From assembly GCA_051942245.1 (NCBI GenBank), contig JAVECL010000024.1, positions 1-64,000 on the forward strand: 64,000 nucleotides of DNA. Reading direction: 5' to 3'. Shown here in pieces: positions 1,244 to 29,998 of the stretch (positions are counted from its first letter, which is position 1; the number at the start of each line of letters is the position of its first letter). This stretch comes from Trypethelium eluteriae (taxonomy: Eukaryota). The translations under genes and the position numbers were made by a program. Under the pieces are notes generated by a model, which made no database searches, had not been told where the DNA came from, and saw only the letters and a program-made list of their open reading frames with translations.

Positions 1244-2663
1244 CTAAGAGCGAGTAACTTGAATGTGGCCAATGGCTTCGATCAAATGTGGAATGAAGCG
1301 CTCAGGGTTCTCAGTCGCTGGAAAATGTCCTAATCCTGGCATAGACTTATGCTTCGCCCCGGGAATTTTGTCAGCCGTGGCCTGGGACATGGATGGGGTA
1401 TTACTCCAGTCGTATTCGCCGTTAAGCATAAAGACTGGGCATTTTTTGGTATCGATGCTTGCCATACGTGAGCGACCATCCCAGCCCCCGAAGTAGAAGT
1501 CTAAGTCGCCGTGAAACATGCCATAGGCTTGTGCACTATAGGTGTGCCAAACAAGTTGCTTATTGGGAAGAGGAGCAGTGGGACTCATCATCTGGGCAGT
1601 GTCAATCTGCGTTGTATCGTGTCATTCAAGACGGACTGCCACTCACTCCGTAGATCCATTCCGGGTTGAAAAGTGACTGGTTTACATAAGGCGATCGGTC
1701 GTACCATTGCCGCTCCATGTTGAGATATTCACTCCTAATTTATTTTAGCCACTCTTACTGTAGAAGAGCTTGGGCTCATGCTCACCCCTGGAGAGGTATA
1801 GAACCACCAGCACCAACTTCCTCATGTCGGATAGCTACGGCCAGACATACTTGACCTGCCATCGAGGCACCACAAATGATAGGCTTGTCCAATCCGAGTG
1901 CCTTGACAAAAGAGGCGATGCACCCTACGTAGCTTTCTTCGGTATTCGTGTGAGCACCTGGGTAATAGCTGCGAGATGGGAAATTCCTTCCATGACCAGG
2001 CAAATCGAAAGCGTACATCTTACACTTCTCCAGCATCCGAGAGTCATTCATGACGCCATGATATTGTCTTGAATCGGAGCCAGCAGTATGAAGGAAGACA
2101 ATTGGTTGAGAACCACTGCCGGACGTTTCGTAGAAGACCTTGCATTTTCCCCAGATAGGGGCTGAGATGTAGACATACCGGCCCACAAGATGATCTTCAG
2201 TAGGCTCTTGGTAAGAATCTTCTTGCATAGGACCGCAATAGGCATCATGAATGAGCTCGAGAGTGCGCCTCCATACGTGGGTCCAATGCGCGAAGGCATT
2301 CTGATCACCTTGCACTTCAATACCCCTTTGCTTGATGTTCATCCCAAACATTCCCCAATAGCTCTGATGCGGCGGGGTAGGTACCGGTTTGAAATGCTCT
2401 TCCCATTGCTGGGATAAGGCTGAGAGTGTGAATTGGGCTGCTGATGGCTTGCCTGTAGACACCTCTGCTTTGCCATTTGTCATTGTTATAAGTAAGGTAC
2501 TATTTGAGCCACTGCTCTTGATGCCGAATGTTGCCGGAGCGTTAATAGCATTGGACGTAGTGAAGGCTCTGAGCTGTCCATCTGACTGGAGAAGCTCTTT
2601 GAATTTTGGAAGAGATGCGCTAAGGGCTTGTGGAAAATCATCCCAAGTACCTAGAGAGCCCAT
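1244..2663 (-). CDS. Alpha/beta hydrolase with an extra ~140-aa N-terminal domain (possibly SCP2-like); 3 exons
   Basis: VFLHTAGSDSRQY, AFDLPGHG, nucleophile elbow GASMAG, LNGEYDW, GLGHFP; two GT-AG introns (about 1735-1786 and 1592-1645) join ORFs 1782..2663 and 1244..1591. Confidence 0.85.
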
Positions 2664-2822
2664 GATGATGGAAAATTACGGGGGGCCAGTAATGAGATGG
2701 ATGGTGAAAATAGATTTTTGACATCACTTCATGGATGAGGTTGCTTTTAAAGAGCAGTATACAAACCTTTCAGAGCTATCATCGGACCTATGGGTCTGCC
2801 AATCTCAAATCGGCCACCTTTT

Positions 2823-3308: not shown

Positions 3309-4422
3309 TTACCTCCCTATGATGGACTCAAGGAAATCAAATCCTTTCCGCTGAAGATCCCACGTTCTCGACCCCTTACTCATTTTGCCTGCAAAGGTAT
3401 GTCCCTCACCTGGCACATCGATGAATTGGCTTCGAACCCCTTCCTCCTCGAGGCGTCTGCATAGCGTTCGACTCAAAAAAGGAGGAACCATCTTGTCTTC
3501 GAGCCCATGAACAATACACGTTGGAGGGAACTCTGGAGCAACATTTAAACATGCGTCAATCTTCTTCCAATCCTTGGAAGGATAGCAAACATCCAAAAGT
3601 GTGCCTTTCGCGATATGCGTCATGGTAAATGCAGTTCGTGGACCCATTGGTGGCGGCTTTCCATCTTCTGTTTGGCCCTCCAGTGACAGTCCGCCCTGGA
3701 TTGGCACGGGCTTCTCTTCGTAGACTTGGCTCATGAAGGACTCGGAGCATTCCGGTGGCTTCATAAACGTCAGAGACTGGGTCCAGAAAGAATCTTGGAA
3801 GTTGGTGGCGCCGTAAAGATCTAAGATGGCTACAACTGGACGTTTAACATCGAAACCCTGCTCAGTATCTTTGAGTCAGCTGTAACGCATCTCAAGACCT
3901 TCTCTTCAGTTTTACAGGTAAGCTACGATAGGCTAAGAACAAGATACATACCAGGGTCAGAGCCAAAGTACCACCGGACGATGTGCCAAAGGTCACAACT
4001 CTTTTGTCATCTACCTTGAAGGGCGAAGTAGCTCCGCTCGAGGCCAGTTCCTCATCTAACCCGCCTGCATAAATCCAGTCAAGCAAGTCCCGGCAGTCCG
4101 AGACAGGACCTTGCAGTATATCAACTTGCGGGCAAAGGCGATGTTCGGGAACCACAACAATCCAGCCGCGTTCCTGACAGTCTTCGATCTGGTCTGCGGA
4201 CACCATTCCCGAATGGCCCAAACAAAAAGCCCCTCCATGGATGCCAATGACTATGCTGTCGTTAGATACAATTCTTCATTTTCTGTGCAGATACTACATT
4301 CCTACTGGAACTTTCGATGTTTGATGGGTAGTATTTGCAGGTAAGTACACATCAGTGTATATAATGCAATCTTCGACTCTTTTATAGATGCACCGTAAAT
4401 GAGGACGCAATGAAGGCGCCAT
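3309..4422 (-). CDS. HGG-type (Abhydrolase_3/BD-FAE-like) esterase; 3 exons
   Basis: ATG at 4422 (MAPSLRPHLRCIYKRVEDCIIYTDVYLP); IHGGAF oxyanion motif, HRLCPQVDILQGPVSD, GTSSGG nucleophile, PPTCIVHGLEDKMVP, VPGEGHTF; introns near 4255-4300 (exact sites uncertain) and 3860-3951. Confidence 0.85.
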
Positions 4423-4915: not shown

Positions 4916-6033
4916 ATGGCAAATGGTACCGCTTCAGTTCCCCGATTGCAACAGCCACCAAAGGATGGAGGGAGCTACGTGATTCCGCAATTAGAGGGTG
5001 AAATGATAACGATACCGGGCAGCAAGGGCGTTTTCCGGGTCTTAGCATCCTCTCTCCAGACTGGCGGAGCGATGTCTGTATTCACGAGCGGAGGAGTCCT
5101 GGCAGACGCGCCGGGATTTCACCACCACAACGAAGCTCATGATATCTTCATTGTCACCAAAGGATATATGAAAATTTGGAACGGAGATCGTTGCAAGATC
5201 CTTGGTCCAGGTGATTTCACATCAGTGCCTCCAGTATGTCCAAGGAAACCTCGACACAATCTATCACAGAAGAAATTAATTGTCTTACTCAGGGAGTCAT
5301 TCATAATCCCCACACCCTGGGCCCTCACTCCGAAAGCTTCGGTGTGATCACTCCCGGTGACTGGCTCGACTTCTTTCGCTATATAGGCGAGTCTTATGAC
5401 GGCATTGTTGTCCCCGAATCCGACTCTCGGAATATTTTGGAGCACTTGATTCCTAAAGTCAAAGCCGCAGCAGGCAAATACGATGTCGTCTTCCATCCGG
5501 AGCATAAAGGCTGTGCTGTCAGCGAATGGACCACTGAGGACGAAGTCATCCCGGACACCACCAAGTCATACTATCTGAGGGCCAATACCGGTCCGCGGTG
5601 GATCCTCGGCGGTGTGATTTCACGTCCATTTATCACCACGAAGCAATGCGATGGCAAATTTGCCATTTCCAGTATTGAGTCTTCTTCGGTGCACAAGGCT
5701 TCTTGTCCGTTCCAACGCAAACTGACATTTCCTCGCACACATCATTGCTTTGCTGTGCAAGAGGGCGTGCTGGACGTCGTTGTTGGAGATGCTTCGTCAT
5801 GTCGTGTTGCGGAAGGAGAGGCCATATTCGTGCCGGCCGGTATTCCCTTTCAGCTGAACTTCTCGAGCAAGTTCGTGAGAGTCTGGACTTTCACAACTGG
5901 CGATGGGATAGAGTCCTTGATTCATCATGCCGGAATACCATTTGGTAGCTATGTGCTTCCAGACAAGTCGAAGCCTTGGGAGGAAAGGCAGTTGTTGGAA
6001 GCATGCCAAAAATTCTCCGTGCAGGTGTCATGA
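4916..6033 (+). CDS. Quercetin 2,3-dioxygenase-like bicupin; 2 exons
   Basis: Cupin metal motif GFHHHNEAHDIF...GDFTSVPPGVIHNP, YYLRANTGPRW, second cupin GEAIFVPAG; intron 5234..5292 (GTATGT...CAG). Confidence 0.85.
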
Positions 6034-6498
6034 CAGTATTCTTTCCCGAAAATCTCATAAATCCCACAGAACATCATGCGTAATTTTCATGATCAATAAC
6101 GGAAACGGTACTATCCAGCGATTCAACTTGGGACAATGCATGAAATGGCAATCGCATTTTGCGATCACTTGGACAGAAAGAGCACAGCCGAACAACATTA
6201 CTTATACCATTCCTCACGTATTGAAATATTTGCGCGAGATCGTCGATGACTGACAAGTGGTACGAAAGTAGGTAGAATGAGTTACGCATGTTAAGGACTG
6301 TGTATTGTACTACGCAGGAATCTTGAATCTTACAAGATCACGTGAATACAGTCGACCGCTTGTGTGCTATCTCTGCCGATCAAGGACAGGAATGTGATAA
6401 ACAAGGCTTCGCAAAGACTTTTCCATTGGTTGACACAACAGCCCGTGTCGACGGCTGGTGCTTGGTGTGTAATCTAGTTCACAACTCGAACACTCAAT

Positions 6499-9400
6499 CT
6501 ACCATCTCCTCTTCTTTGGCCGTTCAGCCCACTGCCTTTGTCTCCACGCCGCCAGACCAGTCACTGAGAAGAGTCCTGCTCCAACGATGAAACAAGGGCC
6601 CATCCATAGCTGAGCTCCAAGGAAATTGTTTGATGCTCCTGATGCAGCAGTAGCGACCGGTCCCGAAATGAGAGCGCCAACCCCTGCCGCAGCGTAAACC
6701 ATGCCCATTCGCGTGCCCAAGACGGCAAGGGAAGGGCAGACGTATGGAAGCACGACTGCAGGGAGGGTTGCTAACATGCCGCTAGCAAAGCCATAGAAGA
6801 CGAGAAAGCCAACGAAGCCACCAAGATTGTGAACTGCGATCCATGAGAACGCGAGGATGCCGCTGAAAAGCTGAGCGGTGAAGAGAAGGGCTTCCCCGCC
6901 AATGAAGTCGGACATGAAGGCCGGCACTGTGCGGCCAAAGAATTGAGCTGCATTGATGACGGCTACGAGATAGAAAGCTGTACTTTGGCTTGCGTGGAGC
7001 TCCGATGTTGCATACACAGTCGTGAGAAAGAAGGGTACGAGGAAAGCGCAAAAGATGAAGAAGGCAGCAGCGATGAAGAATACCATGGGGAGCTCCTTGA
7101 ATGCCGACATGTCCAAAAGTTGCCGTGTTGGCTTCTTTATGTGATCGAGCGGGCGGATGATGAGCGCGGCAACCGCAAGAGTGATCAGTGCAATAAACCC
7201 CATGATACGTGTTGCCCACGCAAAATCAAGCTCGACTAGGAGTCTTCGAAAGACGATGGGGTAGATGACGCCTCCTACAGAGCCACCTGCAGTAGCAAGT
7301 CCGAGAGCCAGTCCCCTTCTATCTTTGAAATAGAGAGGCATCAGTGCTACGCTTGGAATGTATAATAACCCACAACAGAGGCCAGTTAAAATGCCTTGTG
7401 TAAGCATGATTTGATAATATTGTACTGAAAGGCTGAGCATCATTTGGGAGAACACTACTCCCACACCGGCAATGATGAGGATGAGCTTGAAGTATCCTTT
7501 ATCGAAGAGTGGTCCGGAAAAAGCACCAACGACTAAAAGAAGGGCTGCCTGTACGGTTCCGATCCAAGCGATTGAAGACGACGAAAAGTTCTTGAGCACA
7601 CTGGTCTCGTAGTATGCTTGATATATGCCAAAGCTGTTTACGAGACCCCAATTGTTGACGTTAATTAAGAATGCCGCGAGTACTTGAAGCCAGGCTGTGA
7701 TACCACCGTCGGGTGGTTTTAAAGAGATGAGAAAGTCTTCATCTATGAGTGTTGGGTCGCCTTTCTCGGGTAGCTCCCAAGAGACAGTGGGCCTTAGTGG
7801 CGGAGCTAAGGTGGCTGTCCGAGAGATTGACGTCGGTGCCATACTTTTCACGGATTTAGCTTTCAGCGACTCGTCGGATGACTTCCGCGCGTCAGGAACG
7901 AGCGTTTCCTTGGAGTCTGCACCATGTCTGGGCCACTTTCGCGCAGCTAGCAGCTGTCGTCCATTCGATTTTCGAGAAGATCGGTGGGGCAAGTCCCAAG
8001 TTGCGAGTTGAAAAACCTGCTGCATTTGAATCCACGTTTCTACTTCCTCTTCGTCGGAGTCGTAGCCGTTCTGGGTAGGAGGCTCCTCCGAGAGAAGGAA
8101 CGACACTAATCTTTCAACCGACGGATGCTCGTAGACTTGCTTTGGCTCGATGCTGTTTTGGCCCTGAACGGAGTTGATGGCACGGACAAGATTAATGAGT
8201 TGAAGTAAATCCATTCCATTCTGGAAGAAATCATCTTCACTGCAAAGCTCTCGGATCCCCAATTCGAACCGAATAAAGTGCAGAATTGAAGAATACGCGG
8301 CTGATCGGGAGTTTAGATCGAGTTTGACTCTAGAGTCTTTCAGATGAGCATCATATTCATCGAATAGATGTTCGATCTCTTCTTTATAAATGGCATTTCC
8401 TCGTTGGCGTTGGATCGTTCCTTTACCTGCACGTGGAAGAGGCTTTTCTGGACTTGTAAAGAAGATTAGATCGCTGACTATTCGCCCGTGTTTGACACAT
8501 GTTTCGTTCGCGCGCTCCACGTAAGGCCAGATAAGGGCCTTCAAGCTCTTCACCTCGACTTGGAATATCGGTGATCTTTTTGCTTCAACAAGAAGCGCGG
8601 CCTGGAATTTACCCTGCCCAACGATCAAGCATCCAGTCACGTCGGGACTACTTGTAATTATACCTTCCATTGTAACGGGATTCAATTTTTCACCGTTGCT
8701 GAACACAATGACGTCGTCCAACCGGCTCTCATATTTCCAGAGGTCTGGCTCTGTTGGGTGCTTCGAGAACAAATCTTTCGTGTGATACTCTTGCAAATCT
8801 GGGAACGTAACGAAAATCGCTTGCATGAGATCAAGGTGCGGCCTTCGAACAATGACCAATTCATGGAGGCCCCCATCCACCTCACGAAATTCCAAGCCAG
8901 CCCATTCGGCATTGAATTTAAAATAGTGCCAAAATTGAGGGTCCTTCCTGATGAGAGGTAAAGCAAAGAATTCTGTTGCGCCGAGAGAAGAATTCAGTGA
9001 TACGTCGTCAATAAGGATATCGCCAGTAGCTTTCGAGAGCGGTCCACCTGCGTAAGTGAGACCACGTAGCCTTCGTAGGTTTGAGAGAAAAGATTTATTC
9101 TTAGCCAGCTCAACAATGATGGATGGAGGGATGGCACTGTACTCGATCTGGCCATGGATATGGACTGCGTCGATAAGCTCAGCTGTCATTGGCCCCACTG
9201 GCGGAAGGACTATCGTGCTATCGCAGTATATTACTGTAGCAATCGAGTATATGACACCGGCCACGTGAAAGGGAGGGAATGGTGCTAGCAATCTCATGTT
9301 GCCGCACCGTTCTGCAACTTCATTGCCGAAAAGCCAATTTGCGTCCATTGTTGTCGGAACCCCATGTCGAATTGGAACAATCTTTGGAATGCCAGTAGAG

Positions 9401-9991
9401 CCAGATGTATGGAGAAGAAGCCAAGGCTTCATCCGATATTCTTCGAACGACTTCGTAAACGGCCAGTGCTCGACCGGCGCTTCATTAAGCAATTCCGCGA
9501 GCTCTGGTATGATCAGGTGCGTGATTGGGTACTCTTTAAGAATGGATCCAACAATTGGTGGAGCATCCGCTGGGGAAATGAATTTGGTCGCGCCAGCCTC
9601 ATTTAGTAACGATAGATGAGCATCCATGCTGTTTCTCGGAGAAGGGAAGAACATCTGCCGCAAAGTCAGGAGTGGAGGTGATTTGAAGGATTACACTCAC
9701 GACATGGCCAGTCTTGACAGCAGCCATACATATTATTTGATAACGGAGATCGCTATGTCCAAGATATACCAAAGGCTCAAAACTTGAAGAGGTTCCACAA
9801 TTTTCTTTGATCCATAGTGCACAGCGATTGATTGCATTCGCAAAGACGCGGTAAGAAATATTTCGAAAGCCATCTTCCGCGTTCTTAGAACGGGGTATAG
9901 AGGCATATGGTCTTTGATGATCGGCTTCGGCGCGCTCATCTATTAATGCAGAAAGTAGTCGTTTGCCATACGGGAGAGAAGACTCTGCCAT
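6499..9991 (-). CDS. NRPS-like adenylation + thiolation domains fused to an MCT/Mch-family MFS transporter (about 1148 aa); 2 exons
   Basis: Exon 1 9701..9991, intron 9655..9700 (GTGAGT...GCAG), exon 2 6499..9654 stop-free. A-domain motifs LHTSGSTGIPK, YAGGPL, GATE, YHTKDLF, RLDDVIVFSNGEKLNP, LPRAGKGT. T-like DDFFQNGMDLLQL. MFS start PPDGGITAWLQVLAAFLINVNNWGLVNSFGIYQAYY followed by about 12 hydrophobic segments. Confidence 0.85.
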
Positions 9992-10759
9992 AGCTCTTCT
10001 GATAGTGCAGTAGAGATGTTGAGAAACTCAGGTCCATAAGAGGCAGCAAGAAACGGCTAGAGATGCGTATGTGTGAATGCGGCGACCGAGGCGAAACCCT
10101 GTTGAGAAGAAGGACGATAAGAGAGCCAGCCAAGCTCATGAGCAGAACACATAAGAAACATGAGAACTTGGGGCTGACAAGAAGCTTCTTCAGTTTATCC
10201 TCAAGCATAGCGCTTAGCAGGCCGACTACAGTCCGTCAGGCTGTGCGTCATAGTGCAATGATTTCCACACCTAGCTTCGAACTGAAAATCCACACAGGGG
10301 GAATTAGGACCGCTATTCGTTCAAATTCCATTTGTCCAGTTTAGTATGGGTCAGTGCTCTCAGAAAAAGGCAAATCGACGGCCGAACATGGAGAGTACCT
10401 GCACAGCCTACGCGCTTTGGTATTGCTGAAAAACGACTAAGTAGCGAGCTGTGTTGAAGGTGGGACGGCGTGGACAAGTGGGTAATTTTTAGCGTCGTTG
10501 GTTAAGTAAGACATTTCGCGCCTAGTTGTAGATCGACTGTGCTTCTGTTCGATTTACACGTTTGCTAGCCTCGTCGTAACATCTCGGTCAGACCTATTTT
10601 TAGTCGGAAAAGCACTCTAGCTTATTTAGGGAGCAAATTTAAATGTGGAATCCTGATGACACGGCGCGATGCTTCATCGACGGCGACCCTAATTTCCTGA
10701 TTTTCAAATGAGATATGCGGAAGCAGCGAGAAGAGGCATAAGAAAATATGACGCCAAAT

Positions 10760-11977
10760 TTAAAACGCCCATTGCTGCATCCAGAGATCCATCCATTCAA
10801 AACTGACCTTGTTAAGTGCTCTCAATGTCGGACTATACTGAACTGTCTGTTTTGTTTCCAGGGTGACTGAGCGTGCCTTTGGGAACCGCACGGCCTTATC
10901 GGCCAAATTACTGTAAAACTCGAAGAGTTTTGCTGCTGGATTCAGAGCGTAGTCGGGTGTTTCTGACATGTTTTTCTGGAGCGCGGTGACCCATTCTGTA
11001 AATTCTACAATGGCCACGTCGCCGCCCAGATGCTTGACAATAGCCGGTAGCAAAGAGTGCCAAGAACAGGTCCGCGGGTTGACGATGTGATACACTGCAT
11101 TTGAAGAGGTCTGACTCTTCGACCGCCTCTGCGAAAGCTCCATTTGGCAAGGTAGAAGATCCACGACAACCTGCGCGAGCAAATCGACGGGGATCCAGTC
11201 AATTGTTTCCAGTGGTCCAAGAGAGCTTGGCAATAGCTTCAAGTGTTTGGAGGATGCAATGAGACTCGGCAGCCACTCCTGCTTGTTCCATTGGCCATTC
11301 TGCCCATGCAATACAGGTCCGCCAACTTGACCGACACGACAAATCGCAGTCTTGACGCCAGTTGTTTTGCTCGCTTCGGCAAGAAGACGTTCGCTTACAA
11401 GCTTCGACTGTCCATAGCCCATACTTGCCACGCGCCAGTCCTCGATAATCTTTTCTGGCACTCTTTCCCGAGATCCCGGTGTTGCGCCCCATCTTGCTGC
11501 GACACTGATGGAGGAGATGAAAAAGAAGGTCACATCGTAAGTGCAGCGGGTTGCGAAGTCGAGAAGCTGCTTTACGCCACGGATCTGGGGTTCGAATGAT
11601 GTGAAAGCGCGATTGAAGTCTACCGGCCATGCATTATGTAATATGTGTGTCGCTTCGCTTGTTAAAGAGCTGTAGACAAGCTCTGATAGTCCCAGAAAGT
11701 CCTTTGTCGTGTCACATTCAAGGAACTCGATTTTGGGAGGACCCAATTCCGTAGAAAGACCGCGGGCGCGATGTGACTTCCATTGGCGCTGTTCTGCATC
11801 GCTCGACCGATTGAGACATATTACTCGTTCAACTTTCGAGCTGCGTACGAGGGTATCTAAAAGATAGCTCCCAAGAGATCCGGTCGAGCCAGTCAGAATA
11901 ATCGTCATCCGAGACTTTGTAGGTTTCTCCGGTGGCGCGTTCACCTTCTTTGTTCCGAATGATGTGAAAGATGGCAT
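10760..11977 (-). CDS. Stand-alone thioester reductase (NAD_binding_4 / R domain), 405 aa
   Basis: Rossmann IILTGSTGSLGSYLL, HNAWPVDF, FISSIS, catalytic GYGQSK (YxxxK), CRVGQVGGP, WNKQEWLPSLIASS, DWIPVD; in-frame TAA four codons upstream of the ATG. Confidence 0.88.
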   Translation of the reverse strand: MPSFTSFGTKKVNAPPEKPTKSRMTIILTGSTGSLGSYLLDTLVRSSKVERVICLNRSSDAEQRQWKSHRARGLSTELGPPKIEFLECDTTKDFLGLSELVYSSLTSEATHILHNAWPVDFNRAFTSFEPQIRGVKQLLDFATRCTYDVTFFFISSISVAARWGATPGSRERVPEKIIEDWRVASMGYGQSKLVSERLLAEASKTTGVKTAICRVGQVGGPVLHGQNGQWNKQEWLPSLIASSKHLKLLPSSLGPLETIDWIPVDLLAQVVVDLLPCQMELSQRRSKSQTSSNAVYHIVNPRTCSWHSLLPAIVKHLGGDVAIVEFTEWVTALQKNMSETPDYALNPAAKLFEFYSNLADKAVRFPKARSVTLETKQTVQYSPTLRALNKVSFEWMDLWMQQWAF

Positions 11978-14061: not shown

Positions 14062-15425
14062 ATGTCTTCTGCTCTGTTTCTCTGTAAGGAACGAATAGCT
14101 CCGTGTCAGCATATTCGCAACTACCCCCGGGCTACTGCAGGCACCCAGGAGGATATTTTTCATCTCGCGATAAAGCAATACATACCATTGGGCAATCTCA
14201 ATCCATCTCCCGGAGATGTTACAATCGTTGCAGCGCATGCTAATGGATACACTAAAGAGCTGTATGAACCATTGTGGGATGATTTACTCCTTCAAAGCAA
14301 GAACAACGGTACACTTCGCATCCGTAGTATTTGGATTGCGGATGTTTCCAACTCAGGAGCCAGCGGAGTCATGAATGGGTCCCAACTCGGCAATGATTGT
14401 AATAGCAAAGATCTAGCGATATCCAGGGACCATTACTAACCGAGCATCCAGTATCATTTTTCGACCATTCGCGAGATCTTTTGCATATGATCAACCAATT
14501 CCGTGACCAGATGCCCCGCCCACTGGTTGGACTTGGGCACAGTATGGGCGGTACGAGCCTTGTCAATCTTGCGACTATGCATCCTCGGTTACTAACAAGT
14601 GTAATACTCATCGACCCTATCGTACTCCCAGCTCCTTCGAAAGGTGGTCGTAACCTTCTCCCGGCCTACGCCGTCATCCATAAGCGAGATAAATGGCCAT
14701 CCCGTAAGGCTGCCGAGTCTTACCATTGTCGGAACAAATTCTTCCAATCCTGGGATCCGCGCGTCCTGAGCCTCTTTCTCGAGTTTGGGATTCGGAAGGC
14801 TCCGTCCCCTACTTCCCCTACCAATACGTCATCGGACTCAGAGTCTGTTATACTCACGACTTCCAAGTATCAAGAGGCCCTTGGCCACGTCCGCGCCGCA
14901 TATCCTCCACGCAACCAACCCTTTACTGGTACCCCGCCTCCACGTAAAACCCATCCAGATGTTTTCCGCGATCGTCGCCTTGAAGTCCCCTTCTACCGTC
15001 CAGAACCCTTCCTCGCCTTCACCCAGATCCCGTATCTCTTGCCCACCGTGCTCTACGTTACTCCGGCCTCCTCTCCCGTCACCACGCCCGATGCACGCGC
15101 TGCCTGTATCAGCACGATTGGGACGGGTCTGGGCGGAAATGGAGGCGTGAAGGAGGGTGCGGTGAAAGAGGTTGCACTGCCAAACTCAGGGCATTTCGTG
15201 CCATTTGAGAAGCCGACGGCGGTTGCGGAAGTGGTGGCGTCATGGTTGGATGAGCGGCTGGCCGTTTGGCGGAAGGACGAAGAAGAGGAGAGGAGAGCAT
15301 GGGCGGAGGTCAAGGCGGAGGATAAGAGGAAGGTTGATGAGGATTGGATGTTCTGGATGGAGCAATTTGCGGGGAAAGGGGGTCAGGAAGAAAGGCCGAA
15401 GACTGTTTTACAGTCTAAGCTATAA
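14062..15425 (+). CDS. Abhydrolase_6 family hydrolase (MpaH/Lpx1-like) with C-terminal PTS1 (SKL); 2 exons
   Basis: HANGYTKELYEPLWDDL, IRSIWIAD, DHSRDLLHMINQFR, GHSMGG, GHFVPFE; ends QSKL*; intron 14399..14451. Confidence 0.85.
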
Positions 15426-15637: not shown

Positions 15638-16567
15638 TTAATTCCTTTCGAGAGTTTCGCTTTCTGTCCCGCTCTCAAAATCTTTTGCCCGCTTGGATGC
15701 CTTCTCTCTCACCAAAGGCACTCTAATGCCAGCATTTTGCTCCTGTCTTTTGAAATCTGCCAGAAGGTCGCCCGGATTGCAGATATTGAACGCCAGCAAG
15801 GCAATTATCATCATTGCCCCATCAAGTGCAATAAAGAATCTCTCCGTCGAAATCAGGTAGCCCTCCCACCCCTGAATCAGTTCGATCGAGCGGTACACAC
15901 CCCTCGTAATCATACAACCGACCGCCAGAAACGTCGCTCCCGTAATCAGCAACAAAGAACGATCCTTCAAAATTTGGGCCCTCCCTTTCCACGCCACCCA
16001 ATCCAGCAGCAACGAAAACACACACGTCGACACGAGCTGGAACACAATCCCCACCACCATAGTCGTCGTCCCCGGCTGTGGCGACTCTCCCTCATCAACC
16101 GCCGACGCCGCCAATCCACCCCCAGTCGCCTGCAGCGTGCCGCAAATAACATCGATGCCAAAGCAGATACCCAGATACGTCTTGGGGGGAACGGGGCTCA
16201 CTTCTCGGCCCAGGATGACGACGAGGACCCACAGCACGACGTAGATGCCGGCCTGGGTGAAGGCCGGAGATAGGATGAGCACGGCGATCTGCAGGGTGAA
16301 GAGAGTGGAGCTGTAGGAGCAGTAGTGGGCGGCGAGGCGGGCGGCCCAGCCGAGGAGCTCGCCCAGGGCGCCGCAGACGAAGAGGAAGAGGAACCATAGA
16401 CGCGGGTGGGTGAGGGCTTTCCAGAGGTGGAGGGCCAGGGAGAGGGCGAAGAGGATGGTAAAGATGAGGCCCGGGGCGAGGGAGGGGAGGTAGTTGAAGG
16501 AGTTCGAGATGGACGGATCATAGGCTGTGCAGCTCGGAGGGGTGGGACTGGGACTGGCGTTTGGCAT
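15638..16567 (-). CDS. RTA1-like lipid-translocating exporter (7-TM)
   Basis: FNYLPSLAPG, ELLGWAAR, LILSPAFTQAGIY, LQATGGG, RGVYRSIELIQGWEGYL, ERFFIALDG; intronless. Confidence 0.9.
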   Translation of the reverse strand: MPNASPSPTPPSCTAYDPSISNSFNYLPSLAPGLIFTILFALSLALHLWKALTHPRLWFLFLFVCGALGELLGWAARLAAHYCSYSSTLFTLQIAVLILSPAFTQAGIYVVLWVLVVILGREVSPVPPKTYLGICFGIDVICGTLQATGGGLAASAVDEGESPQPGTTTMVVGIVFQLVSTCVFSLLLDWVAWKGRAQILKDRSLLLITGATFLAVGCMITRGVYRSIELIQGWEGYLISTERFFIALDGAMMIIALLAFNICNPGDLLADFKRQEQNAGIRVPLVREKASKRAKDFESGTESETLERN

Positions 16568-17424
16568 GATTGAGACTGTGACTCGCCAGGCTGCAGTAGT
16601 AGAGGGAAGTTGAGGATTGAGATATAACGAATTTATATTCCACGGTGTTCTTTATGCCCCGTATACATAGGATGACGAGTTGGCTATGACTTGTTATGGA
16701 GCCGCGTGCAATAGATGAGATGAAGGAAAAGAGGATTGGAGATGAGGGCTTTTGGATATCTTCATATACACAGACTTCTCCCGTTGTCGCAAGTATACCC
16801 TAACGCTGGACACACAAACATTGCACCGTCCAATGCTCGATCCAGCAAAGACAGGAGACTCGTCCCGTCCCATTTCCCGTGTCCGCTGCTTCGTAGCATG
16901 GTCAAGCCACAAGGAGGATGGAGCGAGGACGTTAAAGCCACAGCCATGACACGGCAGAGAATGTTTGAAGAGTGCTGCAGCCTTAAAATCGCATCCGGAA
17001 CTGTGGTAGCGAGTAGATGTGCCGTGCCGTGCGGACGAACAATGAAGCCGACTGTGGCTAAGTTTTGGTGTTTCGTGCATTGTGCATTGTTCAAGCGCGG
17101 CAATGACGTCTCACGGCGCCCACCGCGCCTTTGACTGTCCGCCTCAATCGAATTCCTGAAGTTGACATCGGCGCTAACAGCAATCTGAAATCCTACAGAA
17201 GCTGAACAGTATGAATTGGCTAATGACTCCATTTTCCGAGCATGCAGTCACACGTGGCTACTGGCAACATTTATACTCTTGCCACTAGATTAATCTGCGC
17301 GGTAAGCACATGGCCCTGGGCAGTAACACCTCTGAAGGCAATTCCTGTGTTAATCAATGCTATTCAGTGTCAAGCTTGATACCTATTCAGATCCTAACTG
17401 AGAAGTTCTATCAAATCCGAGGGA

Positions 17425-20400
17425 CTAGGCTTTTGCTGAAGCGAATCCCGCGATCACTCTAATCGTTCTAGCCTCTGGCAGCTCTCCGTCGGTCCAATCC
17501 ACTTCCTTAAAGCCTGCCTCCATCATACACCTCTGCCATCGATCCTCACTAGTGACTGCATGCTCGCGCCCGTCCTCAAACAACCACCATCCTTCGAACA
17601 GCCCGACTGCGATATCCAGCCAAAACATATTATGAGTTATCTCCACAAGAGTCAGGACACCATCGTCGCGCAAGAGTCGACGAAGCATTGTCAAGGAACG
17701 AGTTAGGTTCCGTGTCGCATGGATACAGTTGGTGGAGATGATCACGTGGAATGAGTTGAGCCACGATGGCTTGGGCTCAGTCTCAATGTCCAGGACGGAA
17801 AACTCCATGTTGGGGACATTCTTGAACGTGCGTTTGGCTTGCGCCACCAGCGATGCTGAGAGATCTGTGAAAACATAGCGGAAGGGGATTCCGAGTTTCT
17901 GGAGATGTTCGACAATGTATTTGGTGGTGCCACCAGTGCCTGCTCCGACTTCGAGGATTGAAAATTTGCCCGGTGTCTTAGGCCTGGAAAGGGCTCTTGC
18001 CAGGAATTCACCAAGAGCGAGAGTAGCGGAGCGTACAAGCGGCCAGTTCTCGTAAACGTCGTCAAGGTTTTGCTTGTTCGCTTTATCGCCGAAAACGAGC
18101 TGCAATCCGTCTTTGGCGCCGGTCAAACACAGTGCCAGCTCGGATCCTGTTACTTGAACAAGCTTGTGGACGTTAGCGTGCTGAGGATACTCTACAAGAA
18201 TTTGGGTAAAAATGCTGCTGGCTGGTGTAGGATCCACGGGTTTCGATGTTCGGATAAATTCTCCCTGATCATTGCATTTTATGAGCTTGGCGTCTTCAAG
18301 AACGCGGAAGAGCTGGCGGACGAGCTGCTTGTGTCTTGGTAAGTGGGAAATGCTTGGTACGACGTCATTGGCCTTGAGCTGTGCCATGTCACGTCCCAAT
18401 ACAGCAAAGCCTTCGACGACGTAAGCAAGAACAAGACTTGCCTGACGAGGATATGCGTGCTCCCAGAATCCAGCAGCCTTGGTTTCGACAGCGAAGCGGT
18501 CGTACTCAAATTTACTCTCTACGAATGCCTCGTGGGGTCGAATCGTTCCTGGCAGAGACTGCGTGCTCTCCCCAGGAGGTTGTATGTTTTTGGCCTCACC
18601 CGATCCCTGAACTGTTGCGAGATTCGCCTCATCGGGTCCTGTCCTGTCAGACCCAATACCTAAAACAGAGTCAATGTGGGTACAGATTGCCCGCACATTG
18701 GGGAAGAAAAGGATTTTGTTCAGATCAATCTCGATTCCAAACGAAGCTTGAAGGTCATTCAAGAGTTCCATAACAACGAGCGAGTCAATCCCGAGATCTT
18801 CAAGCGTGGAGTCATCACTGATTTCGTCCGGAGGAATGTCTGTTACACGGTGCAAAATTTCTCTCAGCTCCTGTCTCTTACTACCTGCGCGAGGTTCTAA
18901 GGGTTGTGATCGATCTGACACTGGCTCTGGAGGCGTAAATTGCGATTGAGCTGGAGTTGAAGCTCCAGAGTCATCTTTCGGTGCATCCACGCTATTCGAT
19001 ATACCGGTGTTATTTGCACTCTGCAACGCCTGGGCTAGAACAGACATCGATGTCCTCGTGAATTCAAATCCTAGGAAGGCAATCGCTACTCTCTCCTCCT
19101 TTGCATCGAAGATGTAAACGTCGCATTCGGTGCGCTGATCGGTGTCCTCTGTCAGGAGCGCATAAGCCAACCAATCTCCAGCATGGATGTCAAAGCTACC
19201 GCTGGTAACGATCTGCTTTATACCTAAGCATACGAGGACCTCTTCGGTGCTTGGGTGGCAAAAATAATTGACAAGAATGCCAGCAAACTGCATGAGGCTG
19301 TCGATCACCGGTGTATCGTATAAGTTTTCGCTGGAGTCGAGCCGGGGATTGACTTTTGCGACTACTCGTCCTGCTGCTTCATGACCCATGCAGGAAATGC
19401 TTTTGATACCTTGGTACATTTCGTCAAAATGCACTAACCGTTGGATGGCCTGGTAAATGTGCTTCCCCTGCATCTTCTCTCCATCAGTAGCATTGAGGAT
19501 GGAGAGACACCGATTAAATCCAATTAAAGAACCATAACGCTTCATCTTTTGACCAAGTGCAGGATCACCGCGTCTCTTGAGTCCAACCTGACCCGTTGTG
19601 TGGATAGCATCATTGGTTCTGCCATCCTTGGTTCGGCTCGATACCACAAAAGACCATAGAAGCTGCTCGTCGCCTACGCAGCTCAGCGTGAAGAAGATAT
19701 CTTTGTTTTCGTCAAGTCCAATTGGGCTCCTCATCTGCAGCGATTTGATCGAGGTCACATGGGTCTCGTATGTTGCCGACGGGACTAACGCCATTGCAGT
19801 ACGCGAAAGAAGCTCAATGTACAGCGAGACGGGAGCAAGGGCCTGTCTCGAGGTAATGTGACCTTTCAGTAGCATCTTGTAACGCTCACTCTGAGGATCA
19901 ACAAGGAAGACAGCAACTTTCTTGCTTTCGTCTTGGAAGCCAATAAAGGAAAAGAACTCATGGATCAGACGAGGCTGCGCAAATGTATCTGACTCCACGG
20001 CAGGCTTTTCTTCGACTCGATCAACAAATGGAAGCCAGTGTTTGGTCTTTTCAAATTGATACGGAGGCACGTTCTTGTGATCATATTGGTGTCTCTGAAG
20101 GCGATGGAAAGGCCAAAATCGGAGCGCATAGCCAGTTTTACACAACGCAACGGTCAATTCTGCCAGCGCATTCATCACCTCGGGCGACGATAGGACAGAA
20201 GGACGGTATCTTTGTGGTGATGCAGACTTGGAACCCATGCAGTTTTGGACCAGCGAGATTACAGAAGTTCTTTGGCCAGCTTCCAACCACGTGCAGTCAC
20301 CAAACCTCTCAGTCAGCCTACCAATCGCTTCTTTAAAAAAGACGGGCTTTCTAGTATGTTCCGGAATCAACCAGGGCCCTGGATCTGTATTGGTGGACCC

Positions 20401-23400
20401 TTCGGTGCTCAGCTCTATGTGGACTTTCGGCTTCTCTCATCTGATACTAGAAGCCAGGCCGTAAAGATCCGGAAGTAGTGGGTCGGTGAACGCAGAATGA
20501 AAACCGTGTGTGACCTTCAACCGTTTAGCAAGAACAGATTGGTTGAGCTTTGGGTCGTTTGCCACAAAATCATCAAGGGATGAAACAGCTTTCTCGGACC
20601 CTACTATAACATGGTTCAACGGGTGGTTGAAGCAAGCTATCTCGAGCTTGTCCTGATTCTCACCGTCGGCATTGAGAGAGGCAAGAATACTGGAGGTAGT
20701 CTCGAAGTCGGCTTGTAAAGAGATCATGGATCCTCGCTCAGCACCCCATGAGCTGGTAATCAGCTCTGCACGCCGAACAACCAATATAAGGGCATCGGAG
20801 AGCGACAGACATCCGCATATACACAATGCAGTCAGCTGCCCGAAGCTATGGCCAACCACTGCTTTAATGTCCAGTCCACAATCAATCCAGCATTTAGCAG
20901 AAGAATACTGAATGGCAAAGAGACTCGCGTGAAGGGTGGGCACATGAGAAATGGTCGAGCGCTGAAAAATAGCGGGATACAGGCTTCGTTGACCCAACAA
21001 GCGCAAGTAGGTTTCGCATTGATCGAGATGGAATCGCAAAATAGCAGCGTTTCTAAAGAGCTCTTCTGACAAACCCACGTAATCGCTTTCTTGGCCTCCA
21101 AAGACCATGATGACCGAGGGAGGGTTTGGTGATGTGGCGTCCGGAACAGACTCAGGATTTCTAGCAGTCTCTTCAAGTTTCTTCTCCAAATCATCGAGGT
21201 CCGTCACCGTTTCTATGAGGGTGTAAGGCAGTGCTTGATTTACCCGATCCGCAAGGTTAAACAGCAGAGAAGAAAGCAGAAATCTGGAATCAGTACAAGT
21301 GGCTCGCTCCGATCTTATAAACTCCAGAAGCTTCCTGGAGTACATCGACAAGCTTTTCCTTGAAGCAGCGGACAAAATAAGCGGTTGCTTCGATATGACG
21401 ACGGGTGTTCGCTTAGTGTCACCAGTTAGCTTCGGAGGAGCCTGACGCACGGCAACAGCAGCATTGCTTCCAGCTGCACCATAGCTGTTGATGCAGGCTA
21501 GTCGCGAGGATCCTTGCCATGACAGACTCTTTTGCGGGATCTCCATCTTGTCAGGCTCAAGCGCGGGAATCTTCGGGTTGAGGGAGTTGAAGTTGGCTTG
21601 ACCCAGGATTGAACACTTCTGCATCATGAGGAGAACCTTGATCAAACCCGCTACCCCCGATGAAGCCTCTGTATGACCAATATGGCCTTTGACAGAACCA
21701 AAATATAGTGTTTCTTTGCGATCAGGCCCTGAGAACCCCTCTCGAATACTCTGACACTCAATTGGGTCGCCAATTTGGGTGCCTGCGTTACCGACGAAGA
21801 TAAGCTTCTATACGCACTGGGATACTATACAAGAACAGCTTACCGGTGCCGTGTGCCTCCACGTATGATACTTGCGATGGTGCTGCATTTGCCATGTGCA
21901 AGACATTGCTATAAACCCTCGTCTGTGACGTTGAGCATGGAACGGTGATGTGGGCATCGTTCAAATTCTGGTTAACCGAGGAGCCGACGATAACTCCTAG
22001 GACATTGTCATGCTCTTCCAGAGCAGCTGATAGTGATTTGAGCACAACGACTCCAACGCCTTCGCCTCTACAGTAACCGTCAGCTGAAGCATCAAAGGGT
22101 TTACAAGCGCCCGTAGGGCTTAGAAACCCGGCGGCAGCTAGGTTTTGGTAGTCAAAAGGGCTAGTGAAGATATTAGTCCCACCCGCAAGGGCTCGGGTAC
22201 ATTCTCCGCTTTGGATTGCTCGGCACGCAGCATTGATTGCAACAAGTGAAGATGAACATGCTGTATCAACCGTCATAGCAGGGCCTGTCAATCCAAATTG
22301 ATGGCTGATTCGTCCACTGAAAAAGGCTCGGGAAGTACCCAGCATCGAATATGCTGTTGGTGGATGACATACGACATTGTCATAATAATTATTCGCGACG
22401 GCGCCAAGGTAACAGCCGTAGTCTGTTGGCACAGACCGAGAACCTGATCCTGACCCAAAGAATCCAGCAGATTCGAGTGTTTCATACGCTACCTCAAGCA
22501 AGACGCGCAGCTCAGGATCCCATGAAACTGCCTCGCGCGTTGTCTTTTTAAAGAAGCGATGATCAAAAGCATCGGGATCGTCAATGAAATTGCCCCAGAA
22601 CTGGGTCTCAGGACGATCCGCAATACGTTTACTGTTGAGGATCAATCGGGTAGGAGGTTTCTGTACTGTGGAGACACCGGAGGCCAAGAGCTCCCAAAAC
22701 CTTTCGATAGAATCGGCTCCAGGAAAGCGGCAGGCCATGCCAACGACTGCGATCGAATGGGGAGGATATTGACCATTCAAGTCACGTACCGTCCCAGAAG
22801 ACTGCGGAACACCATTGGTCCCATTGGCGGCCTTTGCCATTGGCGGTGTGGACTTTGCATGTCCATTCGATATTCGTCGGGCAAGACTAAATGGAATGAT
22901 ACCTTCTTCACAACCCAGGACCACCGTCGTCGGATTCTCTGTTGGAAAGTCGTCTAGTGATGCTTTCACTGTTCCATACCAATCTGATGCGTGAAGTAGG
23001 ATACTTTCAAGGGCGACCTTAAAGACTTCATCGCCATGTCCAATTGGCTGACCAGTAGCATTGCGACGTAACGATACCTTCAACCTAGCAGGATCGGGGA
23101 ACTGAAATCCATCCGTTGCGCGACAAAACGCATCCAGGTGCTCCACGGCAGTCGAATAAACCGCGGGGCAGTGATAACGAGCGGTAATGCTGACAGGTTT
23201 GACGCGGAAGCTAGCCTTGCGAAATGACATTGCCAGTTCTGCTCTGAAGTTGGCTGATGTCGTGACCGTTGCACATGTGTCATCAGTGATGCACGAAACA
23301 TATGTCTATTCTTGTCATCAGTAATGGATTCAGGGGAGACAACTAACGCTAGGTGCCTTATGAGACTCACACCCGGATAGCGATTTGAGATGGTGTCAAC

Positions 23401-24015
23401 GTCGTCCCTTGTCAAATCTTCCTTGCTCCATCGGACTGACAACGTACAGGCCAGATCTGGTGGGTCAGCATACATACTGTCGCAGTCTACGTATGCGCCG
23501 ATGCACATAGCTAAACGGATACTAATGGCCACCATATCCCCCAAGTCCTGAGTGCTTCCAGAGAAAGCAATAGCCGCTGCAGTGAGGAAGCCAGCGCAGA
23601 ACCCCTGCACATCATAATGCCTCCCACCTTCAAGCACAGACTGGTACCATGTGTCACCTCCATCCTCGTGAAGATACTGTAAGAATTGTCCTATCTGAAG
23701 AATCGCTGTCAGAGGCAAAGCGATAATGCTTGGTAGAGTTTCTGTAGAGATTCCCAGATCTCCAGAGTCCAGCCAGTGTCTCAGACAATCGAGCTTGTCA
23801 AGTCCAGGCACCCTGCTCAATTTTTCGTCCCTGCTGGCGAGTCGTTGGAAGACATTTGGGAAATCTTTAACGGTGGGTAATAGTCTCTCAGCCATGCCAT
23901 CGCGCACTAAAACCTGATGAATCCGTCTCACATCGCCTGGAGGTGGTAACTGAGCTTGAGGTCCGCAAAGGATCAAAAGCGGAGGTCGTGATTCTGCGCT
24001 GTTCGTTGCCGTCAT
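17425..24015 (-). pseudogene. Non-reducing PKS SAT-KS-AT-PT-ACP-CMeT (2154 codons) with one in-frame TGA at 20437-20439; possibly pseudogenised
   Basis: SAT GFCAG and RYH; KS DTACSSS, EAHGTG, GHIGHTEASSG; AT GHSFG, THGFHS; PT GHITS, DSLMQF; ACP LGIDSL; CMeT LEVGAGTGG, TNCIHAT. Introns 23306..23370 and 21783..21843. ORFs 20437..21645 and 17425..20370 share a frame, and the TGA is the only interruption. Confidence 0.8.
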
Positions 24016-24899
24016 ATCTCTTTTTTCTCATTCAACTTCGAGGGAACTTTGAATTTACTCTGCGTATCATCAAATTAACATCAGATTAATACATCATTTT
24101 CTCTACCATTCTTCTCACCTCGTCAAGTTCGTCGGCAGCAACTGTTCTGCCTATGAAGTTTTCTGCAGTTTCAATCAACTCTTTTCATTTTGTATGGTGG
24201 ATTGTATGCCTGGTAATACCATGCAACGCTGCTTAGTTAGGTCACAATAAGCAATTCATAGCTTCTCCATTTAAAAAGCGGAATGATTGGCACATCTGCA
24301 AACAACTTGTCAATGCGGGCTTACTTCTTACAAGCTACATATCACTGCAATAACAGGGCCGACTATCTGTTCAAGGCGATTGACCCGTCTACAAGGATAC
24401 AGTGCGAGTGGACTAATCGATTTTACAATTCGACGATATGGTAATTCAACAGAAAAAATTTGCTGATCGAGGCTAGACGATCCTACACAAGATTCCTCTG
24501 GAGATTCACATGCTAGTAGTACTGTCGACTATCTTGAAGAACTGTAGTGTACCGTCGGCCCGAATTGCAATCGCTCTGACGAGTTCGCAGTGCGTCTTAC
24601 TGCGCTTGACATCTGTCGCAGTTCTAAGTGGGGGTAGGTTTTCATTTTTTCTACGTTTGTTTTTTGGTGCGGAACTGAAGACTTATCCCGTTTTTTCAGT
24701 TCATCACTGCTCTAGAGTGGTCATGTTATCTAGTTGAAGCGGATCTCCTCTTTTGGCCGTAATTTTGGGCAGCTGAAAGCCACTGCCCGATCCCTGGACG
24801 ATAAGAACAGTATAACGGTATGTATGTTTCGGCCTCTGGTGCCATTAGACATAGTAAGATGCTGCAGGGTGACTCGTTTGGCTTCTGGCGTTGTCGTGA

Positions 24900-25715
24900 T
24901 CAGTCGGTGACACCGGTCTCTTTACCGAGAGCTAGAATTTGAGCTGCGACGACGGCAACGTCTTTCGTCTTGATCGGTACACGATGGTCTCCGTCCCACT
25001 CAACCACACGAGTGGTTCCAGGCTTGCAGTAGTCCTTAAGCAGCTGGCGATGCAATGCAAGGCCGGGATCCTTCATACCATGCACATGGAGAGTAGGCAA
25101 GCACAGTACATGCTCGTCACCCTGCATGAAAGGGCCGCTGACGTTAGCGAAAGCGCCCGTTGTGAGTTCGTTAGCATCGACAAGGGCAAGCGAGTCGGTA
25201 ACCTCAACATCGAGCGACAGTAGTGGCGCGCGGCCTGCCAGAAGCACAGCAAACTTGAACTTGGAGCCAGCCATGGTCGCGCCGAGCTTTGTCGTCCGAA
25301 TCTGTTGTCGCAAGAGCAGGCTGGCACAGACTTTAGCACCTTGACTGAAGCCCATGAGTGCAACCCAGTCCCCTGTTCCCCCCTGTTGGTCGTCGCGGTC
25401 CATGGCTTGGTGCAGGTTCTCATCAATTTTTTCGATCATTGCATCAGGTCCTGGGTCTGGATGCTCGGGTGACCAGCGAAGCCAACGGCGGAATGTTTGG
25501 ACGTGTTGGAAAGTGGGGATCATGCCTGGGCCGGGGGTTGAGGGAAACGGGCCATCTGCGAAGCAGAAGCGGAATTTGTGTCCAAGGTGTTGGATTAGAG
25601 TACGGCATTGGAGCGAGAAGACTTCGGCAGTAACGCCGCCTCCGTGCAGGCAAAGAATCCGTGGAAGGTGTAGCGTGGAACCCGGCTGCGACGAATTGAG
25701 CGGTGAAGAAGGCAT
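24900..25715 (-). CDS. FSH1-family serine hydrolase (CitA/LovG-like)
   Basis: PRILCLHGGG, GFSQGA nucleophile, PTLHVHGMKDPG, WDGDHRVP; intronless; immediately upstream of the PKS on the same strand. Confidence 0.9.
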   Translation of the reverse strand: MPSSPLNSSQPGSTLHLPRILCLHGGGVTAEVFSLQCRTLIQHLGHKFRFCFADGPFPSTPGPGMIPTFQHVQTFRRWLRWSPEHPDPGPDAMIEKIDENLHQAMDRDDQQGGTGDWVALMGFSQGAKVCASLLLRQQIRTTKLGATMAGSKFKFAVLLAGRAPLLSLDVEVTDSLALVDANELTTGAFANVSGPFMQGDEHVLCLPTLHVHGMKDPGLALHRQLLKDYCKPGTTRVVEWDGDHRVPIKTKDVAVVAAQILALGKETGVTD

Positions 25716-29390: not shown

Positions 29391-29998
29391 ATGCCTAGCA
29401 ATACCAGCGTCAAGCAGGGGTTGAAGCTCATCGAGGATGATAAGTCGAAGGTGCTAGGGCTTACTGTGGGCAATCGGTCGATCTCAACAGGCGAATTTGT
29501 TCCCAAGGCTGGTATGCCCCGCTGCGCGACTACCTAGCCTTCCGAAATTCCCGCCGTCAACCTCTTACTGACTTATGTAACCTTCTTATAGATGCTCAGT
29601 CAGCACCAGAAGTCTCTTTTGGGGTGCCCTCACAGTCAGCCACCTACTTGGTCGTCGGTCTGGACCTCGATGCCCCTCTACCTTCTTTTGGCGTCCTTGG
29701 GCCCATCCTACACTGGATTCAGCCTGGTTTCAAGGCATCGCCATCCTCAAACACCTTAGCTTCTTCCGAGCCGTTCGTTGCAAATTACATCGGTCCGGCC
29801 CCTCCTCCATTCAGTGGCCCCCATCGCTACGCATTTTTCTTGTATGAACAGCCCGAGGGTTTCAGTGGCAAGAAGTATGCACCACCGAACGGAAAGCCGC
29901 TGGGAAATATGAATAGGATGAGATACGATTTGGATGCTTGGGTGAAAAAGGCTGGTTTGGGTGAGCCACTTGCTGTCAATTACTTCAAGAGCAATTAA
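29391..29998 (+). CDS. Cytosolic PEBP-like (Tfs1-type) protein; 2 exons
   Basis: ATG 29391 in GCCACCATG context; intron 29512..29591; DLDAP, ILHWIQPG, YIGPAPPPFSGPHRYAFFLYEQP. Confidence 0.88.

Follow-up and report, generated by a model that had tools for sequence, protein, structure and literature searches.

Organisation of the fusion gene

This work concerns a gene on the minus strand of a 64,000-nucleotide stretch of the Trypethelium eluteriae genome (assembly GCA_051942245.1, contig JAVECL010000024.1, positions 1 to 64,000 of the forward strand; hereafter the window), which joins adenylation (A) and thiolation (T) domains of the carboxylic-acid reductase (CAR) type to a permease of the major facilitator superfamily (MFS), and a neighbouring gene for a stand-alone thioester reductase (R). 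We consider it fairly probable that the product of the locus is a membrane-tethered carboxylic-acid reductase in split form, composed of an A-T-helix-permease chain and a free R. It is a variant of the known kind of fungal CAR or nonribosomal peptide synthetase (NRPS)-like enzyme, and an apparently undescribed one.

The minus-strand frame 6499..9690 is free of stops over 1063 codons; its translation, open reading frame (ORF) P0001, supplies the residue numbers used throughout (e.g. 549–570, S495, R920). The spliced product of the two exons (Table 1) comprises 1148 amino acids (aa), with an A domain followed by a T domain, a conserved linker helix, a disordered spacer and an SLC16/MCT-type MFS permease. 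Splicing joins KTGHV to MFFPSPRNS, in agreement with relatives such as P0024 (KAGYIVFLPSPRNS) and with the public model P0496 (source name “MFS general substrate transporter [Viridothelium virens]”), which also has 1148 aa, uses the identical splice and differs from the window translation in two residues. An independently assembled 13.9-kb contig from run X1 spans positions 6400–10100 in one piece, with no indel and no joint. In run X2, labelled as a different organism, a 346-nt contig of depth 6.9 is identical to window positions 6964–7289, and there is an unrelated 41-nt match; this fragment probably stems from carry-over or from a small amount of the same fungus.

Pfam matches in P0001 are AMP-binding (81–240), AMP-binding_C_3 (325–445), MFS_1 (669–915, 7.9e-21) and a weak PP-binding (484–532, 18.5 bits against a cutoff of 20.8). 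The ANL core, to which we assign the usual catalytic roles as presumed for this family, is invariant in 32 sequences (SGSTGxPK 96–103, E240, D306, R323/D325/D326 and K423), and the linker motif QMQQVFQLATWDLP lies at 7987–8028. In the AlphaFold2 model built from the 32-sequence alignment (mean predicted local distance difference test score, pLDDT, 75; predicted template-modelling score, pTM, 0.47), the A and T domains are folded, a lone helix occupies 546–564 within a stretch (536–660) that is disordered at pLDDT below 50, and the MFS part is confident over 664–1062, with pLDDT mostly above 85. The whole-protein model gives no defined placement of A-T relative to the permease, and is uninformative on channelling.

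Table 1. Coordinates of the fusion gene, its parts and the neighbouring genes in the window
Feature	Position	Strand	Details
Exon 1 of the A-T-MFS gene	9701..9991	-	ATG 9991-9989; 97 codons; N-terminal part of A domain; tblastn places P0496 residues 1-98 here
46-nt intron	9655..9700	-	GTGAGT start, CTGAC branch-like site, CAG end
Exon 2 (remaining A domain, T, linker helix, spacer, MFS permease)	6499..9654	-	Stop codon 6499-6501
Adenylation domain within exon 2	8356..9654	-	P0001 residues 13-445; Pfam AMP-binding + AMP-binding_C_3
Thiolation (carrier) domain	8086..8328	-	P0001 residues ~455-535; Pfam PP-binding 18.5 bits; helices 462-532 folded in AlphaFold2 model
Leu495 codon TTA at the phosphopantetheine-serine position	8206..8208	-	TCA (Ser) in run X1 contig; Ser in P0496
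Conserved linker helix after T, proposed docking site for free R	7981..8055	-	Residues 546-570; W553 and M556 invariant; AlphaFold2 helix 546-564
Low-complexity disordered spacer	7726..7980	-	Residues 571-655; long in this subclade only (alignment); pLDDT <50
SLC16/MCT-type MFS permease	6502..7725	-	Residues 656-1063; ~12 long helices, DGGxxAWLQV motif, invariant Arg920 of transmembrane helix 8
Stand-alone thioester reductase (R) gene	10760..11977	-	405 aa, single exon; NAD_binding_4 4.5e-36; TGSTGSLG, Y191-x3-K195
Alpha/beta-hydrolase like MpaH'/AKT2	14062..15425	+	Two exons, ~436 aa, C-terminal -SKL
Non-reducing polyketide synthase (SAT, KS, AT, ACP, HTH_51 + C-methyltransferase)	17428..24027	-	Pfam on ORF pieces
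FSH1-type serine hydrolase beside the polyketide synthase	24903-25784	-	

Conservation of the fusion in ascomycetes

A search with the whole ORF gave 229 matches, 120 of which were listed, and the counts of relatives given here refer to those 120. At least 55 of them join adenylation-type domains to MFS_1, with 42–81% identity and coverage up to 99%; one is the window's own ORF, which leaves 54 non-window fusion relatives. The named sources belong to Dothideomycetes, Leotiomycetes, Sordariomycetes and Arthoniomycetes, and include Bathelium, Zasmidium, Septoria, Dothidotthia, Lachnellula, Lecanicillium and Coniocarpon. Since many of these records (the window's own P0004 among them) are plain unspliced ORF calls, their frames are open in the DNA itself. 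The fusion was also found at six of the 80 metagenome loci kept (L001, L002, L003, L004, L005 and L007), and the junction between T and MFS is open in all six. The fusion is real and conserved, not an accident.

We also weighed whether an A-T remnant and a separate MFS gene starting at the ATG at 7842 had come together in frame by chance or through faulty assembly; this alternative is effectively refuted. The 48 low-complexity codons between the linker helix and this ATG would stay open by chance in about 1 case in 10 (an estimate from (61/64)^48), which speaks for this alternative, but the fusion recurs in relatives as distant as 42% identity, its junction is open at every metagenome locus that carries it, and the X1 contig crosses the junction without an indel. 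Moreover, in most relatives the linker measures about 35 aa in the alignment, between the invariant W..M helix and the DGGxxAWLQV motif with which the permease begins, and lacks an internal Met, so that there is no room for a separate MFS start; the Met at 7842 itself is replaced by Gln in the two closest relatives.

An earlier note on this DNA, made from its letters, had proposed an in-frame A-T-MFS fusion after one 46-nt intron, and the open frame, the Pfam domains, the splice of P0496 and the relatives all bear this out. The checks it suggested, an architecture search, the state of the frame in relatives and a possible misassembly at the junction, likewise came out in favour of the fusion. 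Its suggestion that the internal ATG at 7842 could yield the MFS part alone is contradicted by the short linkers and the Gln. The note knew of no characterised fungal A-T-MFS protein, and our literature searches, which did not reach subscription-only papers and supplements, found no description of one either. The Atlas search returned no cluster for the fungal fusion family itself, giving bacterial analogues only, with scores below 0.9.

Some relatives differ in gene structure. At L002 (~1124–1154) and L007 (~5754–5784) an intron, absent from the window, interrupts the permease just past the FLIN motif of the first transmembrane helix. In Septoria, the public model P0019 (1357 aa) adds short-chain dehydrogenase (SDR) domains to A-T-MFS, and an SDR gene lies beside R at L005 (2527–3567). 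Possibly an SDR is one more recurring neighbour, which would perhaps convert the aldehyde to an alcohol; alternatively, the P0019 model may be over-merged.

A stand-alone reductase beside the fusion

In the window the R gene shares the strand of the fusion and lies 768 bp upstream of it. When R was compared with a library of 1.84 billion proteins, the best matches were stand-alone proteins of 400–450 aa (47–52% identity), followed by the C-termini of A-T-R enzymes of about 1040 aa; among solved structures, the fungal R domain 8aep is the nearest (1.3e-110). Y191 and K195 do not vary in 28 stand-alone relatives, and TGSTG is almost invariant. We considered a detached R domain of a polyketide synthase, as the adjacent synthase ends after its methyltransferase; this was rejected, because none of the top 150 matches of R exceeds 1169 aa and the best multidomain ones are A-T-R enzymes, so that R is not of the polyketide synthase type. 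For this locus, splicing of R to A-T as one gene was also rejected: in the window R is located upstream of A-T, and the two are on opposite strands at L005 and L007.

These are the only two independent metagenome loci with sufficient flank, and in both of them an orthologous R (47–50% identity) lies upstream of the fusion; L004 repeats the L005 sequence with a shorter flank and was not counted as independent. In Zasmidium cellare the locus tags of the fusion and R, PRZ48_010318 and PRZ48_010319, are adjacent. A stand-alone R occurs on a contig of identical size for at least 26 of the 54 non-window fusion relatives, 23 of them from the 120 R matches listed and three more from cluster members; this is a lower bound, as many contigs are short. 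The earlier note had placed the MFS “in place of” the reductase domain. This part of it is not borne out: judging from sequence comparison, the reductase is split off rather than lost or replaced, and it is co-inherited with the fusion throughout the family.

Linker helix and predicted docking

In the canonical A-T-R enzymes P0067, P0135 and P0139, a helix of the form ..QM..L......LP stands between T and the Rossmann fold, which agrees with the pre-R type of linker that had been suspected at about 7987–8025. The fusion retains this helix: W553 and M556 are invariant in 32 sequences, the W..M motif is present in 59 of 60 fusion sequences, and the free R starts just past the corresponding point.

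A complex model of R with fusion residues 455–580 scored 0.80 (runs 0.78–0.81) against 0.00 for the best control, a mark which in the docking benchmark was attained by 51 of 78 solved complexes and by 2 of 108 mismatched pairs. The runs share at least 50% of contacts, with a partner pLDDT of at least 71, and the confident predicted interface brings helix 549–570 against R residues 127–146 and 184–210, beside the Y191/K195 motif. From this model, the free R probably docks back onto the fusion via the retained helix.

Phylogeny of the two halves

Trees were built with MAFFT and FastTree after removing sequences aligned over fewer than 480 residues (A-T) or 340 residues (R), as well as duplicate entries of the window. 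Among the 163 tips of the A-T tree, the 50 A-T-MFS sequences all belong to one clade with support 1.0, together with seven “A-T only” models and one A-T-R protein, P0130, and the other 104 A-T-R proteins lie outside; the A-T part nests among A-T-R sequences, just as had been supposed from the family of its A domain. We considered the seven “A-T only” models as possible unfused forms and rejected this, because in each of them an intron or a contig end cuts the ORF short and the first MFS motif is present; they are therefore truncated fusions.

In the R tree (286 tips) 77 of the 111 stand-alone R proteins form one clade, which also has support 1.0 and branches among the R domains of A-T-R enzymes; the other 34 lie elsewhere. 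The sole member of this clade that is not stand-alone is again P0130. The A-T parts of the fusions and the stand-alone R proteins thus form mirror clades, which shows a single origin of both halves. At least 57 sequences from several ascomycete classes make up a conserved clade with the enzyme split in this way.

The permease

All 13 PDB matches of the permease are SLC16/MCT carriers, with MCT8 the best (1.8e-16; E-values from 1e-16 to 1e-5), so its earlier assignment to the MCT type stands. No part of the alignment is better conserved than the MFS half. R920, within the motif NAAQFFGR, is invariant, lies in helix 902–930 and aligns with R371 of MCT8 (539-aa numbering) in transmembrane helix 8 (TM8), a position which we take to be that of the TM8 arginine binding the substrate carboxylate in SLC16 carriers. 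Conservation of the MFS half together with the invariant R920 favours a permease which is still handling a carboxylate; this would be the acid that the A domain activates and not the aldehyde formed from it.

The permease could alternatively serve as a mere membrane anchor or localisation device, at an organelle or the plasma membrane, and transport no substrate. The lack of a fixed A-T/MFS contact in the AlphaFold2 model, where both parts are separated by a disordered stretch, would suit such an anchor. However, an anchor has no need of dozens of invariant transmembrane residues, including the TM8 arginine and DGGxxAW, in the best conserved half of the protein, and we regard this alternative as improbable.

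Neighbouring genes

The MpaH'/AKT2-like hydrolase matches MpaH' (7dbi, 1.4e-55) and has the GHSMGG nucleophile motif (GxSxG). Its orthologues (36–40% identity) lie between R and the fusion at L005, where the protein ends in -AKI, and at L007, where it ends in -AKL. In five more cases members of the hydrolase family occur on contigs matching in size those of fusions or R partners (56600, 22467, 11993, 9585 and 6833), and in Trypethelium subeluteriae the hydrolase and R locus tags are adjacent. The strict pattern [SAC][KRH][LMI] of a type 1 peroxisomal targeting signal (PTS1) is present in 51 of 120 hydrolase family matches, and nearly all of the 120 end in xK[LIM]; the targeting signal was found in one of 119 R sequences and in none of the fusions. 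Divergence along the locus is uneven: the hydrolase is about 93–97% identical to the public V. virens protein, and R 100%.

This conserved thioester hydrolase homologue bears on the alternative that A-T-MFS works without R, its acyl group passing to another acceptor or to the neighbouring hydrolase in the manner of an Aas/LplT-type acyl-carrier shuttle. Bacterial fusions of MFS with AMP-binding and acyltransferase domains, and clusters of PP-binding with thioesterase and MFS_1 (Atlas leads of 0.82–0.86, below 0.9), offer some precedent for it. Against this, Pfam finds no acyltransferase or condensation domain in the fusion, R is co-inherited and co-diverging with it, and the helix preceding R in canonical A-T-R enzymes is retained invariant. 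Besides, the hydrolase has a peroxisomal matrix signal, while the N-terminal A-T should face the cytosol. On balance, we find a function without R quite improbable and keep to the split reductase.

No thioesterase or R release domain was detected by Pfam on the ORF pieces of the non-reducing polyketide synthase (NR-PKS), whose last long ORF ends about 26 aa past the methyltransferase; its product may be released in trans. In the window genome the NR-PKS could provide the acid substrate. At L005 there is no PKS within 21.7 kb, and therefore the module is not tied to a PKS.

Other flanking ORFs are possible cluster members: a weak cupin-like one at 5215–6030 (+), a prolyl-oligopeptidase-type fragment at 3312–3875 (-), an alpha/beta hydrolase at 1785–2675 (-) and an RTA1-like membrane protein at 15641–16651 (-). 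Two adjacent ORFs at 27829–28380 and 29444–29995 (+) both match the phosphatidylethanolamine-binding protein (PEBP) family and have the appearance of a local duplicate pair.

Proposed mechanism

We propose a single break in an ancestral A-T-R gene of the fungal CAR/NRPS-like kind, at a point that separated the Rossmann fold of R from the linker helix after T. The A-T portion, helix included, would have become attached to a carboxylate permease of SLC16/MCT type, at its cytosolic N-terminus and by way of a flexible spacer, and the R half kept as a free protein encoded alongside. In the resulting system, the permease would carry a carboxylic acid across the membrane, the tethered A domain would adenylate it and load it onto T, and the free R, seated on the retained helix, would reduce the thioester with NADPH to the aldehyde. 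The adjacent NR-PKS may supply the substrate in the window genome, in the form of a methylated acid of the orsellinic type. We infer the transport coupling, the substrate and the reduction in trans from the domain composition, the conserved residues and the docking model described above.

The conserved PTS1 hydrolase, next to fusions without PTS1 and R proteins with almost none, prompted a bolder version of this scheme, in which the three conserved genes (hydrolase, fusion and R) encode a hand-off machine at the peroxisomal membrane. The luminal MpaH'-like hydrolase ending in -SKL would free the acid from its coenzyme A (CoA) ester, the MCT-type domain would export it across the peroxisomal membrane, A-T at the cytosolic N-terminus of the permease would capture it at the pore, and the docked free R would reduce the captured acid to the aldehyde at the cytosolic face. 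We hold this version to be doubtful. If true, it would be the first NRPS-like enzyme physically fused to an organelle transporter, channelling an intermediate between compartments.

Several observations weigh against the split reductase as proposed. One of them concerns the carrier domain. The window T domain reads GMDLL, with Leu (TTA, 8208–8206) in place of the Ser of GxDS which is present in 31 of 31 aligned relatives. The earlier description of a “T-like” domain is thus apt for the window copy, which lacks the Ser, but not for the family. Ser occupies the carrier position in 57 of 58 non-window fusion sequences, and the exception, the diverged relative P0051, has Thr there. The X1 contig (depth 416) differs from the window by four transitions in 3701 bases (7790, 8207, 8731 and 8761), and the one at 8207 makes the codon TCA (Ser) instead of TTA; the two residues in which P0496 departs from the window are those in which X1 does. 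As both X1 and P0496 have Ser, the Leu is private to the window assembly.

We put at about even the chances that the window assembly carries a loss-of-function allele (S495L) or else a miscalled base at this codon; either way, the gene as written encodes no working carrier-dependent enzyme. The contrast of TTA in the window with TCA in the deeply covered X1 contig, and with the Ser of P0496 and of almost all other fusions, speaks for this, and so do the other three X1 differences, which are of an ordinary kind (two synonymous and P634L in the spacer). The remaining ORF, on the other hand, is intact, with no stops or frameshifts, and any inactivation must therefore be very recent. The Leu is accordingly either a very recent thiolation-null allele or a base-call error; if the base call is right, the window copy cannot be loaded.

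The second difficulty is P0130 (Dothistroma septosporum EME42645.1), a 1044-aa A-T-R protein with 66% identity to the A-T and 60% to the R of Zasmidium and without the linker helix. Its position inside both clades means that the split is not universal or that this gene model is wrong; it may represent a secondary re-fusion after loss of the MFS part, or a gene-model artefact spliced across it. As to the partnership with R, matching contig sizes are an indirect sign that the fusion and R share a contig. The docking score may echo solved R-domain and T-R structures of CAR and NRPS enzymes (8aep, 5msv and others), and halves of split genes tend to pass the docking test, so that the model expresses a likeness to the cis arrangement and predicts binding only. 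Finally, that the permease and the A domain share one molecule, and at which membrane they would do so, is our suggestion.

Significance

Fungal NRPS-like reductases are regarded as soluble single-chain A-T-R enzymes. If the proposed model holds, the fusion would be a natural case of transport-coupled activation in eukaryotic secondary metabolism, the helix and R would provide a ready docking pair for engineering split reductases, and the trio of fusion, R and PTS1 hydrolase would serve as a marker for spotting pathways that run across an organelle membrane. Public records describe these proteins just as “MFS general substrate transporter”, “FUB8” or “hypothetical”, and genome mining therefore misreads them.

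Comparison with known systems

With the SLC16 carriers (MCT8, MCT10, MCT2, MCT1 and SfMCT) the window permease shares its MCT-family PDB matches and the conserved TM8 arginine; unlike them, the window protein has a 650-aa N-terminal enzyme extension, and the E-values of the matches are just 1e-16 to 1e-5. The hydrolases MpaH' of mycophenolic acid and AKT2 of AK-toxin resemble the neighbouring hydrolase in sequence, nucleophile and PTS1-like end, a likeness which belongs to the neighbour gene and not to the fusion. MpaH' is described as a peroxisomal acyl-CoA hydrolase whose C-terminal GKL is needed for localisation (bioRxiv 10.1101/524025), and AKT2 as peroxisomal through its C-terminal tripeptide (PMC9134587).

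The bacterial Aas-LplT proteins (MFS, acyl-ACP synthetase and PlsC) share with the fusion an ANL acyl-activating enzyme joined to an MFS carrier and the idea of coupling activation with transport, and clusters of this type are its nearest neighbours in the Atlas feature space (score 0.84, as leads). Unlike them, the fungal family has its own carrier domain, a reductase partner and an SLC16/MCT-type permease, and no PlsC-type acyltransferase was found in the fusion (no PF01553 match at E ≤ 0.01). The Atlas also holds a 51-protein cluster of about 1253 aa with PP-binding, Thioesterase and MFS_1 (“amino acid adenylation domain-containing protein”) and several bacterial clusters with AMP-binding, acyltransferase and MFS. 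In these, carrier-dependent enzymes seem to have been joined to MFS permeases independently.

In penicillin formation, the MFS carrier PaaT/PenM moves an aromatic acid across the peroxisomal membrane to an ANL phenylacetyl-CoA ligase (PMC9134587). Here too an MFS carrier and an ANL activating enzyme handle a carboxylic acid within a secondary-metabolite pathway; in contrast to the fusion, PaaT/PenM and the ligase are separate proteins, the CoA ester is made inside the peroxisome and no reductase takes part.

The closest known systems are the fungal A-T-R aryl-acid reductases, which have in common with the fusion the A-domain family (AMP-binding with AMP-binding_C_3), the T domain and the helix linking T to R. 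In Aspergillus terreus ATEG_03629/ATEG_03630, an A-T-R enzyme reduces the aryl acid made by a neighbouring NR-PKS (PMC4274970), and an NR-PKS neighbour is likewise present in the window. The nearest intact A-T-R enzymes are at most 41% identical over A-T among the matches listed, P0130 excepted. What sets the fusion apart from all of them is that R is a separate 405-aa polypeptide instead of a C-terminal domain, while the A-T half is joined to a 12-helix permease.

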